Numbered from the stretch's first letter, positions 1 to 7,265 are shown. The stretch is DNA of 19,866 nt from a virus (IMGVR_UViG_2579778613_000002:1-19866); one strand, 5' to 3'. Numbers and translations: made by a program. The notes: generated by a model from the sequence alone, not told the origin.

Positions 1-793
<793 letters not shown>

Positions 794-866
794 GTCGTTA
801 ATTCCTATGCGTGGTTTTACGATACCGAAGCCCTGACTGTTACCGCAGTTGGGGCTTCAACTTTCT
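794..866 (+). ncRNA. sar: sar-like small antisense RNA (about 70 nt) complementary to the ant start codon and RBS region
   Basis: Plus-strand promoter-like elements: -35 TTGATA (759-764), 17-bp spacer, -10 TATACT (782-787), predicted start near 794. Hairpin at 827-858 (GAAGCCC / GGGCTTC stem extended by ACTG/CAGT, hexaloop TTACCG) followed by a U-rich run AACTTTCTGCTCT. P22 has an antisense sar RNA of similar size at the equivalent position. Confidence 0.45.
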
Positions 867-1060
867 GCTCTATCAGTTATATCTTTCCCTTCATATACTT
901 CACCTATATTGCTAATGCTGGCAGAACATCCAAGATGCTTGTATCTTATGATGTCCAACACGCAGTCACTACACAGCATCCGACCTGTTTCTTTAGAGTA
1001 AATGTATGTTTGATCAGCGTCTGATTCGCTAATGCCGCAGAAACAACATTCTTTACTCAT
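857..1060 (-). CDS. Small Cys-rich protein (67 aa) with two CxxC motifs, putative zinc ribbon; function unknown
   Basis: ORF-track ORF. Its ATG (1060-1058) overlaps the arc stop in an ATGA arrangement, indicating translational coupling. CxxC pairs at C5/C8 and C30/C33 with a further Cys at 44. A GAGGGG SD-like element lies upstream inside arc. Confidence 0.6.
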   Translation of the reverse strand: MSKECCFCGISESDADQTYIYSKETGRMLCSDCVLDIIRYKHLGCSASISNIGEVYEGKDITDRAES

Positions 1061-1197
1061 ACCGTTATCCCCTCTCTCTTCAGGCTGTCCATCACCCGTT
1101 TAATTACTTCTGCACTAAATGAGCGACACTCTTCCTTTGCTTTCTCTTCAAGGATTTTTTCTAACTTCTCTGGCATACGCAGTGTTTTTACCTTCAT
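1057..1197 (-). CDS. arc: Arc-like ribbon-helix-helix repressor (46 aa)
   Basis: Below the ORF-track size cut-off; found by hand translation from ATG 1197-1195: MKVKTLRMPEKLEKILEEKAKEECRSFSAEVIKRVMDSLKREGITV, ending TGA 1059-1057. Pattern (beta-strand RMP, two helices, ...RVMDSLKREG) resembles P22 Arc. SD GGAGGA is 4 nt upstream of the ATG. Confidence 0.7.
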   Translation of the reverse strand: MKVKTLRMPEKLEKILEEKAKEECRSFSAEVIKRVMDSLKREGITV

Positions 1198-1302
1198 TGC
1201 ATCCTCCGTTGTATGTGGTACGCATACATAGTATTTAGGTACGCATTGATAGTCAATAGATACCTACATATCCTGTGGTAAAAAATTATTCAGGATGCGC
1301 CG
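1198..1302. promoter_or_regulatory. Divergent immI-type control region: Pant-like (minus) and Pmnt-like (plus) promoters with operator-like palindromes
   Basis: Minus-strand promoter: -35 TTGACT (complement of 1251-1256), 17-bp spacer, -10 TACTAT (complement of 1228-1233). Plus-strand promoter: -35 TTGATA (1246-1251), 17-bp spacer, -10 TATCCT (1269-1274). The two -35 hexamers overlap inside the perfect palindrome ATTGA-TAG-TCAAT (1245-1257), which is nested in a larger inverted repeat TAGGTA...TACCTA (1236-1266). Direct repeat GGTACGCAT occurs at 1217-1225 and 1238-1246, 21 bp apart. Confidence 0.55.
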
Positions 1303-1554
1303 ATGTCTGATCGTAAGTACAAAAACCCTCAAGTGAATCTGAGGCTTCCTGTAGAGATAAAGGAACGTCTTATTGAACTGGCTGAGGCTAATTCTCGTTC
1401 ATTAAATGCTGAGATGGTCGCAGCACTTGAAGCATGGACCGAAAAAAACAAACACATTCAAGCACTAGATCTTGCAACTATAGCATCGCGACTGATAGAG
1501 CTTGAGCATGATGTTGAGAAGTTAAAATGTATGCATGGCAATGGTGAAAAATGA
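1303..1554 (+). CDS. mnt: Mnt-like ribbon-helix-helix repressor (83 aa)
   Basis: ORF-track ORF. N-terminus ...NLRLPVEIKERLIELAEANSRSLNAEMVAALEAW has the RHH pattern of P22 Mnt (FNFRMPMEVREKLKFRAEANGRSMNSE...). C-terminal part looks coiled-coil like Mnt. Divergent from arc; SD AGGA at 1292-1295. Confidence 0.75.
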   Translation: MSDRKYKNPQVNLRLPVEIKERLIELAEANSRSLNAEMVAALEAWTEKNKHIQALDLATIASRLIELEHDVEKLKCMHGNGEK

Positions 1555-2850: not shown

Positions 2851-4692
2851 TCACTGCTGTGTTGCCTCAGTGGCAAGCAGCGGTCTGATGGCATTTGCAG
2901 CGTTACTTAATGCTCTTTCATAGGCTGGCGTTCCTGCTTTGGTGTTTGCCAGACGTAAGAGCGCATTCCTTGCTGCTTTGGACTCATACAAGCGCATCAT
3001 TGCACCGAAACCAGCCTCAAGCCCCATTGATACGCCAAGAGTCGCAGTTGCGCCAATCGTCCTTATCCTGTTGGCTTGCGATTGCCCCGTCTGAGTTACT
3101 ACATTTGCGGTGTCTGACCTTGCTGTTTGCTGTAGAACTTCATGAAGAGCATCAAGCTCTTTCATGTGCTTTCCAGAAAAAATAGTGTTGTAAATTTCAC
3201 CACCTGACTGAGATTTCAGCTTATTAACTTCAGTGATGAACTTGGCTGGAGAGTCACCGGCCTTTTCCGCTATTTTGCTGACGTAAGCTGCACGCATAGC
3301 ATCTTTCCCTTTATCATCCAGTGCGCTCCAGATTCGTTTCACGTCAGATGGTTTTCTGCTTAATACAACGGTATTTATAAGTTCAGGACTGGCTTCACTG
3401 CTTGCCTTGTTGAGCTTGTTGGCAATGTTTTTATTAAGCACCTTATTATAAACGTTTGCATAATCGGAATTTGCTTTAAGGTATTTTGCTGCGTCTGATG
3501 CACCGAGGTTTTTAGCAACTGCGTTACGAAGGTCTTTTGACATTGCATTCTCTACCATATTGGTAGCTGCTTTTGCCTGGTTGGGGAAGACCATAGCATC
3601 TCCCTGAACATTAGATCTAAATGCTGTTCTGTGCTGACGCAAGAGATCAAACGTAACATCCAAATCAGTTGCAGGGTTTGCTAATTCTTCACGTAGGTTA
3701 CGCAAGGATGTAAGCAGGCTTTGATTGGCAGACGTCCCAAGCCGTTCCTGTCTTGCGATCGCTGTATTCAGAGCATTCATGGTATTTGTGGTATCAACTG
3801 CGGCATTACCCATTTTATTGGTGACGTCATTGATAACAGCGCCAGCGGCATCCTTCCGCCCCCTTAACGTGGTGGTAAGAGATTTCACCACATCATCAGG
3901 GTTGTACTCACCAAAACGGTCAAAATAATTGCTTACCAGCTTACTACGCGTTGCATATTGCTCAGCTCGCTTTGAGCCTGTCCCGAGCAAAGCCCCCTCA
4001 GCATCCTGAGTAAGTCCGCGAGTGAAAGCATTTTTCGGCGGGATAACATCAGATGTCATTGGTGTCACGCCCATCGATTCTGATGTGGCAATTTTCTTCG
4101 CCACTTCTGGCGCAATATCACCTTTTATAGCCGTTATTCCACGCCCTATTCCCTTTGCTGCTGCGGAAAGAACACCCTGAGCGGCAAGGTTAACTCCGGC
4201 ATTTTTAGCTGCATTTTGTGCGAAATCGCCTTTCTGATTTGCGGCCTCTGCCAGTGATCCAATAGCCATGCTTCCTGCCGTTCCAACTCCTGGAACTAAA
4301 TACCCGCCAATTGTTTCTCCAGCTTGCGCATAAGGGTCTGTCGGTCGCTCGACAGGGCGATAAACATCATCCAAAACCTTGGGGCCGCCAAGCCCCTGGC
4401 TGATTGCATTAATCAGACTTGCGCCACCCTGCAATACGTCAAATGGTATGTTTACCAGACCACGACCAGCCTGTTCTGCAATTTGCCCTGCACTTTTACC
4501 ACCTGTGAGCCAATCACCAGCTTGTTGCATCAATGATGGTTCTTCCCGTGTTGGTGCATTATTGGCCTGATTAACTGTTTGTTGCTGAACAGCCTGACCA
4601 GCAAAATACTCATCAATGGCGGTGCCAATATCTTCGGTGCTCGTACCATCAGGAAAGGTAAATGTCTTACCGTTTGCAGTTACTTTCATCAT
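2851..4692 (-). CDS. gp16: Ejection (DNA transfer) protein, P22 gp16 homolog (613 aa)
   Basis: ORF-track ORF. Size and position (last gene of the late operon, after gp20) match P22 gene 16. Gly/Ala/Gln-rich composition typical of ejection proteins. Start overlaps the gp20 stop. Confidence 0.8.
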
Positions 4693-6104
4693 TCCACCGT
4701 AAATTGAATGCCTGATTTTGAGGTATATGACCCAACCTGATTCCGTGGTTCTCCTGAAGGTGTCGAATCTTGTGCTGGCGCTGCGTCAGTATTCATTGAC
4801 ATATACCGCTTAACGGCACTCCCCAATGATTCACCTTTTTTAACATCCAACCCCAATATCTGACCGCCATTACGCGATTGTCCTGGATTGCCATTCGCGC
4901 TCATCCACTCGGCTTTAAACTCATTAAACTGCGCGTTTCGTCGCTCAAGGTTTGCCATCGCATCAAGCCATCTTGCGACCGTCTCAGGGTTATCCATGTC
5001 AGTTGGTGCACCCTGCCGAACGATCTCAACGTCTTTATCCGTTGCGGGGCCGGGAGGTAGGAATTTAAGAACCTGACTGTTAACAAGGGCATTTTGGCGG
5101 ATGCGCAAATCACGCAATGTTGTATCGCTTCCGGTAAGTTTTGCGAACATGTTCTGTGCGTTACCGAACAAACCTGTCGTTGGTTTTTCTGCTCTGAACT
5201 GTTGAGCAAGCGCACTCATGGAATTGGCTGAGTTTGATGATGCTGTAGCATTGTTTACAGCCGTCTCGATGCCTTTTTCCATGTTTACTGACAGCTTAGG
5301 TGCTTCGCTAATCAACTGCTGAGCCTTTTCCTGTGCTTGCTGCATCTTAAACCCGAACTCTTGCTGATCCAGAGCCAAGCGTTGTGCTGCGATATTGTGT
5401 CCAGTCATTGCTGACTGATAGGAAAGGTTTTGCCCTCTCGCCTGAAGTGCTTCTCCAGCCTGATTGCTGCGGATTGTCTCTGCAAGTTTGCCTCGGTCAA
5501 TTTCACGACCAGCCATCTTGTCCTGAACAGCAAACGCCTTTTCTGGTCCAAGCGCACCGAGAGACATAGTAGTCAACATGTGTGATAGCTGCTCTGGATT
5601 ATGGATACCTGTCTGAATCATCCAGTCAGCATTCGCCCCCACGCGATTTAACCTGTCCTTGTTGTCAGTAATGAATTTACTGTAGGCTTCCGGTCCCTGA
5701 GAAAGAGCGACGTTAGCCCTTATGGCTAAATCGCCCATATCGTTGCGTTGCTGATCATTAAGACCGGAAAACGCCTGTTGTGCCTGTGCAACAAACGCTG
5801 GATTTTCCTGGGCAAACTTAAATAGTCCCGATGGATCACCAGAAGCCCATGCATCAGCGTGAACCTTATTGAACGCACTAATCGCTTTCTGTTGCTGTTC
5901 CTGATTGTAAATATCAGCAACTCCAGCCAGACCACGTAACGCGGTCAGACCAACGTTATTTGCACCTGAGCGAGCCAGTTCATTGTTTTCGCGGATCAGA
6001 CCAAGCGTTGCGTTAATGTCGCTTGCCTTTGGCGCATTCTCATTTTGCGTACCGATGCCAGCCAGAAAACCACCAGAATTAATACCCTGTTGCCACGTAG
6101 CCAT
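4689..6104 (-). CDS. gp20: Ejection protein, P22 gp20 homolog (471 aa)
   Basis: ORF-track ORF. Length and position between gp7 and gp16 match P22 gene 20. Confidence 0.8.
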
Positions 6105-6114
6105 TGATTACTCC

Positions 6115-6807
6115 TTAAAACAACGAGCCAAGCAGACCAAGACCGCCGCCGATCGCAGCCCCCCACGGAGTTGATGAACCAATTAATTTCGCAAGTCCGG
6201 CCCCAGCAATAGCACCAGACGCACCTCCGCCAATAGCAGATTGCATTGCTGATGGTCTGTTGGCATTTGCCGCTGCAAGAGCCGCACTTTGCTGCGAAAT
6301 CTGACTCATGTTGTTGGCATATGTCTGCCCGGCGTTTGCCTGACCTTGCAGTGCGCCAAGACCAATATTTGCCAGATTCTGGTAGTTGTTCATCTGACCA
6401 GATAGCCATTGCTGACCAAGCGTTGGTGCGATTGTTGCTAACTGATTACTGGTTGCGGTGGAACCCAATCCACCTGTTGCTTCCGCTGCCGCCAGACTCT
6501 GATAGCGAGCCTGACCAGCAAGATCTTTGTACTGCTGAGAGTTGTAATACTGGTTAAGCGCCTGACCTTGCCCCTCCAGAGACGATAAGTTTTCGAGGCT
6601 TCCGACATACTTATCAGCCAGAGGAGTAAACGGCTTCAGGTTGTTCATGATGGTGTTGAACTGCTGATTTTGCAGGTCTGCTGCATACTTCTGAGCTTCT
6701 GCGGCATACTTTGCGCTTTTATCAGAACTGCCACCTTTCCCACCCTTTTCAGGGCAATAAGGTTCCTCGCCGCGCAGTTTTCTGCCCAGCTTAAATGCAT
6801 ATAACAT
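6115..6807 (-). CDS. gp7: Ejection protein, P22 gp7 homolog (230 aa)
   Basis: ORF-track ORF. N-terminus MLYAFKLGRKLRGEEPYCPEKGGKGGSSDK... and the Gly-rich C-terminal tail match P22 gp7 as I recall it (229 aa). Confidence 0.8.
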   Translation of the reverse strand: MLYAFKLGRKLRGEEPYCPEKGGKGGSSDKSAKYAAEAQKYAADLQNQQFNTIMNNLKPFTPLADKYVGSLENLSSLEGQGQALNQYYNSQQYKDLAGQARYQSLAAAEATGGLGSTATSNQLATIAPTLGQQWLSGQMNNYQNLANIGLGALQGQANAGQTYANNMSQISQQSAALAAANANRPSAMQSAIGGGASGAIAGAGLAKLIGSSTPWGAAIGGGLGLLGSLF

Positions 6808-6809
6808 GG

Positions 6810-7265
6810 CTATCTCCCGTGATTCAGGAAGTCGATTAGTTCTTCGCGTGTGGCGCTGTAAAAAGTCACGTCATCCACGCCTTTAAAGTATTTCTTGATG
6901 GTTCCTACACGCTTAAGGCCAATCATTGCGCAGTACATCTGCCCGTGGCGGAATTTGCGTGCAGCGAACGATGTGACGCACTGAACGGTGGTGTTAGTCA
7001 GAATGTATCGCCAGAACGCCATCCCGATTTCCTTGCTGAATCCGCGAATCTCTGGCAGGTACATGGCGTGGCAATCAAAGGTCAAAGGCTGAATCTCCTG
7101 ATAGTAAACAATTCCGCCGAACTGCCCGTGCACGTTCACCTCAAAGTAACGGCAATCAGGTTTGTAGTCGTATCCATCACCGTTGTTGCTCCCGGCGATA
7201 ATGTCAGGGTGATTTCCGACTGCTTCGATCAGGTCAATGTTTCGCGTTGGTTTGAATGTAATCAT
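6810..7265 (-). CDS. Gene-14-position protein (151 aa); putative head/ejection-protein assembly factor
   Basis: ORF-track ORF located between the tail-needle gene and gp7, where P22 has gene 14. Assigned by synteny and size only; I do not recall the sequence well enough to confirm homology. Confidence 0.5.
   Translation of the reverse strand: MITFKPTRNIDLIEAVGNHPDIIAGSNNGDGYDYKPDCRYFEVNVHGQFGGIVYYQEIQPLTFDCHAMYLPEIRGFSKEIGMAFWRYILTNTTVQCVTSFAARKFRHGQMYCAMIGLKRVGTIKKYFKGVDDVTFYSATREELIDFLNHGR

Follow-up and report, generated by a model that had tools for sequence, protein, structure and literature searches.

A probable P22-type immI control region with 21-bp-phased boxes and divergent promoters in a CUS-3-like prophage

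The 105-bp segment at positions 1198–1302 of a 19,866-nt stretch of viral DNA (IMGVR_UViG_2579778613_000002; hereafter, the window) very probably comprises the divergent promoters and the operators of a complete P22-type immI module, carried by a CUS-3-like E. coli prophage of the P22 family. It is the exact spacer between two divergent ORFs, encoding 46 aa on the minus strand and 83 aa on the plus strand. The control region is a variant of the known P22-type immI switch, from which it differs in its DNA sites and promoter layout. More telling than the perfect palindrome at its centre are three boxes phased at 21 bp and a 60-bp footprint that is conserved across genera.

Arc and Mnt are textbook models of β-sheet DNA recognition, and the only characterized Arc and Mnt operators of which we know are those of P22. 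The module described here is a natural second specificity class, with a putative operator of ~60 bp conserved from Escherichia and Salmonella to Photorhabdus, Xenorhabdus and Arsenophonus. The same putative operator stands beside Arc-like proteins with different strand residues, and it offers material for studying the evolution of ribbon-helix-helix (RHH) specificity and of operator architecture. Presumably the module also determines by which superinfecting phages these prophages can be induced via Ant.

The immI module and its prophage context

We regard the P22-type immI module as complete because an Arc-like gene, an Mnt-like gene, sar and a P22-type ant are all present (Table 1). The 46-aa protein has the size and fold family of the Arc repressors (~50 aa, RHH only), which as dimers of dimers bind a partly symmetric ~21-bp operator in their own promoter; its best relatives in the PDB are P22 Arc chains, and over 39 aa it shares 38% identity with P22 Arc. 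The 83-aa protein matches phrog_795 at full length (residues 1–80) and finds its best PDB match in 1mnt (P22 Mnt; E 4.5e-5). Its identity to P22 Mnt, 42%, is restricted to the RHH domain, and no similarity to the P22 Mnt C-terminus was detectable in its own C-terminus. A separate helix was predicted at residues 57–78 in an AF2 single-sequence model (pTM 0.33), of which the secondary structure alone is usable. In Mnt repressors the RHH domain is followed by a C-terminal helical tetramerization domain, and in the working model set out below the Mnt-like protein would probably be a tetramer assembled through its C-terminal helix. Residues R4, Y6, K7 and P9–L15 (strand PQVNLRL) are invariant in 11 diverse homologues. 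In RefSeq and PHROGs, Mnt homologues go under the name 'partition protein ATPase', apparently a misannotation that has been propagated.

The minus-strand ORF starting at 793 was identified as ant because it carries the Pfam domains P22_AR_N (E 2.1e-44) and P22_AR_C (E 9.7e-17). The sar antisense RNA scored 85.7 bits against an Rfam gathering score of 43 (E 5.3e-18), and 7 nt separate the end of the Psar-like site from the Rfam sar start at 795; the annotated Psar and sar of P22 are placed as in the window. Bases 758–770 (ATTGATAGTAGAT) resemble the operator palindrome, with 2 mismatches. Between arc and ant lies orf67, whose product has two CxxC-like pairs and gave no match in Pfam, and which is probably co-transcribed from Pant. 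CUS-3 has an identical ORF; some E. coli prophages do without it, ant following arc directly (locus L098).

The arrangement shares with P22 an mnt gene divergent from arc, followed by ant, with sar antisense over the ant start, as well as the pair of RHH repressors and, apparently, the position of the module beside ejection-protein genes in a late operon of P22 type. A gp20-type injectosome gene (Inj_translocase) occupies 4689–6104 and adjoins a 613-aa gene in the gp16 position; the tailspike, which comes after ant in CUS-3, lies beyond the left window end. The nearest phage is CUS-3 (CP000711), at 96.7% DNA identity over window positions 850–1541. It has the same module, with a control region that differs at 4 positions. 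In Salmonella phage SEN22 the same module is 82% identical, and the block 1210–1276 is almost unchanged; neither phage shows a functional difference from the window. Of 5426 complete E. coli genomes, 146 have the control region, among them UTI89, where it lies at 2604240–2604360 of NZ_CP062228.1, and the lineage of K1 phage CUS-3. A literature search for experimental work on a CUS-3-type immI module (binding, footprint or transcript start) returned none.

CUS-3-type regions have been said to be without arc (Villafane et al. 2008; PMC2629481), a conclusion reached for CUS-3 because arc is unannotated in its record. Positions 6505–6986 of that record are labelled only as the boundary sequence 'bsq2', and they hold an intact, unannotated arc-like gene (46 aa) and orf67; the interval concerned in locus L001 of our collection is 4008–4348. 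The literature statement that CUS-3-type regions lack arc is hereby corrected.

Table 1. Coordinates of the module features in the window and of the corresponding P22 control elements
Feature	Position	Strand	Description
ant antirepressor gene	1–793	minus	N-terminal 264 aa; continues past left window edge
Psar-like promoter	759–787	plus	TTGATA-17-TATACT with upstream TG (extended −10); 10/12 match; inside 5' end of ant
sar antisense RNA	795–862	plus	Rfam RF00262, full length; complementary to region just upstream of ant start
orf67	857–1060	minus	67 aa, Cys-rich; lies between arc and ant; matches phrog_7150 of unknown function (E 3.4e-50)
arc-like gene	1057–1197	minus	46 aa (MKVKTLRMPEKLEKIL...); RHH; Pfam Arc PF03869 (E 2.9e-9)
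Conserved block A	1210–1230		TGTATGTGGTACGCATACATA; over Pant −10 and start; 67–100% conservation per position
Box G1	1217–1225		GGTACGCAT; over predicted Pant start
Pant-like promoter (arc-orf67-ant)	1228–1256	minus	−35 TTGACT 1256–1251; 17-bp spacer; −10 TACTAT 1233–1228; consensus scan 9/12
Extended inverted repeat	1232–1270		Arms 1232–1249 and 1253–1270, 14/18 complementary; 3-nt centre
Box G2	1238–1246		GGTACGCAT; in Pant spacer, abuts Pmnt −35
Central palindrome	1245–1257		ATTGA-TAG-TCAAT; arms are the TTGA of both −35 hexamers
Pmnt-like promoter	1246–1274	plus	−35 TTGATA 1246–1251; 17-bp spacer; −10 TATCCT 1269–1274; consensus scan 9/12
Box G3	1259–1267		GATACCTAC; degenerate third box (6/9); in Pmnt spacer
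mnt-like gene	1303–1554	plus	83 aa; RHH domain and C-terminal helix; Pfam Arc (E 3.1e-10)
P22 Pant	394–422	plus	BK000583, locus coordinates of this analysis
P22 Pmnt	427–399	minus	BK000583, locus coordinates of this analysis
P22 Oarc	399–419		Between hexamers of both promoters; BK000583, locus coordinates of this analysis
P22 Omnt	423–445		Over Pant start; BK000583, locus coordinates of this analysis

Promoters, boxes and their conservation

A preliminary description of this DNA had proposed two back-to-back promoters with overlapping −35 elements. One promoter-like site was indeed found in each direction, with equal consensus scores and backing from conservation. The predicted Pant start lies near 1221, with GGAGGA (1207–1202) 4 nt ahead of the arc ATG, and the predicted Pmnt start near 1281, with AGGA (1292–1295) 7 nt ahead of the mnt ATG. 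The two −35 hexamers do touch inside the palindrome, as described, but they abut rather than truly overlap, base 1251 being the only one they have in common. Among 56 distinct relatives, the Pant −35 is invariant and the Pant −10 varies only at hexamer position 3 (1231). For the Pmnt −10, T1269, A1270 and T1274 are 98% conserved, compared with 46–70% at 1271–1273 and 50% at the flanking positions 1268 and 1275. These conservation patterns, with a TAnnnT signature at both 1228–1233 and 1269–1274, support the two promoters predicted from the sequence. A P22-like interdigitated Pmnt (−10 GATAGT at 1248–1253, −35 TACATA) is the weaker and less probable candidate, with 3/6 matches in its −35 and without the TAnnnT signature of 1269–1274. 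Rejected as a terminator was a 'terminator-like' hairpin at 1210–1228: there is no plus-strand gene end there, the minus version is without a T run, and the hairpin is the symmetry of block A.

The 9-bp direct repeat that had been noted two helical turns apart over the Pant spacer and start is present. Its copies G1 and G2 lie 21 bp apart from start to start, both within a 21-nt direct repeat (1217–1237 and 1238–1258; 76% identity), and a search of the 19.9-kb window for the exact 9-mer found no copy besides these two. G1 falls within a near-palindrome, GTACGCATAC (1218–1227), which is perfect in several relatives (GTATGCATAC), and its TAYGCAT is retained in nearly all relatives. Read on the minus strand, G3 supplies the inverted repeat with its right outer arm. 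The G3 position, exactly 21 bp from G2, is occupied by a direct GGTACGCAY or GGTATGTAC in relatives that include Photorhabdus and Chimaeribacter. Because distant relatives have this third direct copy, we take the basic architecture to be three GTAC-type boxes at a 21-bp period. GTAC is itself palindromic, and G2 and G3 can therefore also be read as the outer arms of a long inverted repeat. The perfect palindrome, nested as had been described in the longer repeat TAGGTA...TACCTA, is likewise found, with TAGGTA at 1236–1241, TACCTA at 1261–1266 and the 14/18 inverted repeat around it. It is nearly invariant, including its asymmetric TAG, and forms the core of a conserved 20–21-bp block (1240–1260, centred at 1251), the palindrome centre falling at about −30 of both predicted starts.

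The likelihood of such elements arising by chance was estimated from 2000 dinucleotide-preserving shuffles of 1198–1302. A perfect palindrome with 5-nt arms was matched in 1111 of them and is unremarkable alone; a 9-nt exact direct repeat occurred in 60, a 14/18 inverted repeat in 4, and both together in none of the 2000. An 8-nt inverted repeat, GGTAAAAA (1185–1192 and 1277–1284), was discarded as chance-expected, with one arm in arc coding sequence and the other unconserved.

The strongest evidence against a chance origin of the spacer elements is their evolutionary conservation. Relatives were gathered in three ways, via the Mnt-like protein, via the Arc-like protein and via the palindrome, and the alignment with related immI regions that had been proposed earlier showed the control region to be conserved above its flanking coding DNA: in 27 non-redundant protein-anchored loci, 1211–1270 is 87–97% conserved per 10-bp bin, compared with 58–85% in the coding sequences of arc and mnt on either side. 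There are nearly no indels across these 60 bp in Escherichia, Salmonella, Photorhabdus, Xenorhabdus, Arsenophonus and Chimaeribacter. Positions 1240–1243 and 1245–1248 at G2 are 100% conserved in the protein-anchored set, and conservation at 1218–1227, 1240–1245 and 1261–1267 is 86–100%, even where the flanking genes fall to ~50% protein identity. Because conservation thus reaches bases that the promoters do not need, it argues for protein-binding sites. Furthermore, arc, mnt and the control region are invariably co-inherited. Scans of IMG/VR with a DNA pattern and with an Arc alignment found no palindrome or Arc-like protein with a different partner; true instances carry all three, and the remaining palindrome-pattern matches, for which ~20 are expected by chance, are without the GTAC boxes and both repressor genes.

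Comparison with P22 and assignment of the repressors to their sites

In P22, the annotated order of elements is mnt–Oarc–Omnt–arc (BK000583), and Mnt represses arc and ant, with Arc additionally repressing mnt (PMC11016777). Like P22, the window has two conserved intergenic blocks of ~20 bp, one central to both promoters and one at the Pant start. Block A, with G1, is the positional counterpart of P22 Omnt, and the central block 1240–1260 agrees with P22 Oarc in size (~21 bp) and partial symmetry (6/10). The layouts differ in that the P22 promoters occupy the same 34 bp, each −10 lying over the −35 of the other, with inferred starts ~37 bp apart, whereas in the window the −35 hexamers alone touch and the predicted starts are ~60 bp apart. 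Three 21-bp-phased boxes stand in the window where P22 has two adjacent operators and, unlike P22, the window has an extra 67-aa ORF between arc and ant. P22 Oarc (ATGATAGAAGCACTCTACTAT) and Omnt (AGGTCCACGGTGGACCT) were both absent from the whole window with up to 3 mismatches allowed, and the window repressors are ~40% identical to those of P22, in the RHH domain only. For these two reasons a different immI specificity, which the preliminary description had anticipated, is well founded; with both operator sequences and promoter geometry unlike those of P22, the module should have an immI specificity of its own.

If the P22 order is carried over to the window, Arc falls on the centre and Mnt on the arc-proximal GTAC boxes. 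There is mild support for this arrangement from the order of the sites, from regulatory logic and from a small number of arc-less relatives, and we tentatively adopt it, by analogy, as the preferred working model. The leftward promoter very probably drives arc, orf67 and ant and the rightward promoter mnt, both overlain by a conserved composite operator made up of G1, G2, the degenerate G3 and the central block on the dyad. According to the working model, an Mnt-like tetramer would occupy G1 and G2 and shut off Pant in the lysogen, leaving Pmnt active, and the weak G3 would let Mnt regulate its own synthesis once its level is high. After infection, Pant would supply the small Arc-like protein, which would occupy the central block and close both promoters, and sar RNA would add post-transcriptional control of ant. 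By analogy with P22, a site at about −30 of both promoters would suit Arc, not a maintenance repressor that has to silence Pant while still being made.

The old arc-less or arc-dead lineages (L070, L342/344, L330/331 and L340) bear on this assignment in that none of them retains an intact central palindrome. The central TAG is replaced by ATG in L070 and by TGG in L342/344, and the right palindrome arm is missing in L330/331 and L340, loci that are without arc and Pant. Three of the four lineages still have a G2-type box beside the mnt −35; L342/344 keeps G1 and has lost G2. In L340, which is without arc, three GTAC-type boxes ~10.5 bp apart surround the mnt −35. These lineages add weak support to the preferred assignment, being four to five anecdotal cases in which the effects of losing Pant and of losing arc are confounded. 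Against the preferred assignment stands the identity of G1 and G2, which are the same 9-mer, whereas the counterpart positions in P22 are bound by two different proteins. In addition, the sub-sites of known Arc and Mnt operators lie at half the 21-bp spacing of the boxes.

The preliminary description had proposed the palindrome as a plausible Mnt operator and the repeats of GGTACGCAT as Arc half-sites. We consider it unlikely that an Mnt tetramer binds the central palindrome and inverted repeat (1236–1266) with Arc dimers on G1 and G2, and that assignment is probably reversed. Nothing else is as invariant as the DNA-reading residues of Mnt (R4, Y6 and K7 together with PQVNLRL, of the N-terminal arm and β strand) and the central 20 bp, which counts against the preferred assignment inasmuch as it fits Mnt at the centre equally well. 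Mnt at the centre would also agree with P22 Omnt being the more symmetric of the two P22 operators, the window centre being a palindrome, and with the Emek/N7 site at the P22 Omnt position, which starts with CATTGATAGT as found in the window palindrome; with G1 and G2 bound by Arc, Pant would be autoregulated as it is in P22. However, a site at about −30 cannot tell Pant from Pmnt, and Mnt bound there would repress its own synthesis as strongly as that of ant. The palindrome arms are accounted for by the TTGA of the two −35 hexamers, and the resulting site order is opposite to that of P22. Lineages that have lost the right arm (L330/L331, L340) or the TAG (L070, L342/344) likewise speak against Mnt at the centre, as does the G box beside mnt in three of the four. 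We hold it still less probable that the repressors have no separate operators and instead read alternating or overlapping sub-sites of a shared array, competing or cooperating along one DNA face at ~10.5-bp intervals (GTAC at 1219.5, ATAGT at 1230, GTAC at 1240.5, ATAGT at 1251 and (G/A)TAC at 1261.5). The 21-nt unit of 1217–1237 and 1238–1258 does repeat a GTAC box plus ATAGT, the 21-bp phasing is strict, with nearly no indels across genera, and G2 extends across the left edge of the conserved central block. Position 1231 (ATAGT or ATATT) largely follows the type of the Arc-like protein, with T in 12 of 13 P-S-R and G in most V-T-R types. But the first ATAGT is the Pant −10 and the second the −35 overlap, so that their likeness may be incidental, the association at 1231 may reflect shared ancestry, and we know of no precedent for mixed Arc/Mnt arrays.

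A rather improbable elaboration is a three-site RHH switch resembling λ OR, in which an Mnt tetramer would bridge G1–G2 strongly and G3 weakly, sharing or competing for overlapping sub-sites with dyad-bound Arc. If this were true, the paralogous repressors would make up a single graded nucleoprotein array instead of acting at two independent operators; to our knowledge, a graded three-site architecture is undescribed for Arc or Mnt. It is very improbable that the region contains no dedicated operator and that its conservation stems from two promoters and a recombination boundary sequence (bsq2) of mosaic phages. Such an explanation would agree with the CUS-3 GenBank record, which annotates 6505–6986 as 'boundary sequence' only, and with the palindrome arms and ATAGTA being promoter hexamers. 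It is contradicted by the conservation of the spacer and start bases named above, which promoters do not need, by the two RHH repressor genes that flank the region, the P22 homologues of which act precisely there, and by the two intact unannotated ORFs within bsq2 itself.

Residue-level comparisons were rejected as guides to the assignment. The window Mnt has Q-N-R as in P22 Arc, which reads TAGA boxes, and the Mnt of L/ST64T also has Q-N-R, its site being AGACCAC-G-GTGGTCT. Covariation between Arc type (KVKTLRMP, KKVKTIRMP, PSSVRFP and EPVSVRMP) and DNA gave no clean pattern, V-T-R and P-S-R strands occurring beside identical DNA. Position 1231 alone tracks the Arc-like type, which is probably due to shared ancestry.

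Other immI types, decayed loci and neighbouring genes

The immI region is known as highly variable among P22-like phages (PMC2629481; PMC8022706), and the window is one more immI specificity class in this region. At least four other immI site types were observed in related phages. The modules of ST64T/L, Emek/N7 and 611R6/Proteus all include an RHH gene of Mnt type, which a divergent Arc-like gene may or may not accompany, and their spacers contain short symmetric sites. The L/ST64T site given above lies at 1413–1427 in phage L (locus L003). The Emek site is TAGTAC-C-GTACTA (L005, 1434–1459), and those of 611R6 (L099, 1690–1760) and Proteus (L096) are TGTGATATCACA-type repeats.

Several loci related to the window form a natural decay series. 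In L070, arc is cut to 13 codons, and in L342/344 it is a C-terminal remnant; the stretches concerned are 1359–1448 in L070 and 920–1117 in L342. Unrelated sequence replaces everything left of mid-G2 in L091, the control region is replaced up to 1276 in L029, and mnt stands alone beside unrelated genes in L330/331 and L340. The decayed loci L070, L342, L091, L029, L330/L331 and L340 could act as natural mutants for operator assignment. A search for further relatives of the arc-dead locus L070 found that contig alone.

Downstream of the Mnt-like gene, 1551–1868 on the plus strand is an ORF of 105 aa whose N-terminus resembles a signal peptide (MKRIAILLLLCLSSIANA...) and which matches phrog_19844 (unknown function). 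Because its start overlaps the mnt stop (ATGA), the ORF probably shares a transcript with mnt, is translationally coupled to it and is expressed from the prophage; it is a candidate lysogenic-conversion or exclusion gene. A strong hairpin at 2080–2101 on the plus strand (AAACCCACC...GGTGGGTTT), between convergent genes, looks like a bidirectional terminator. Beside it, 2108–2539 on the minus strand encodes a probable lipoprotein of 143 aa with a weak PEGA-domain match (phrog_6823).
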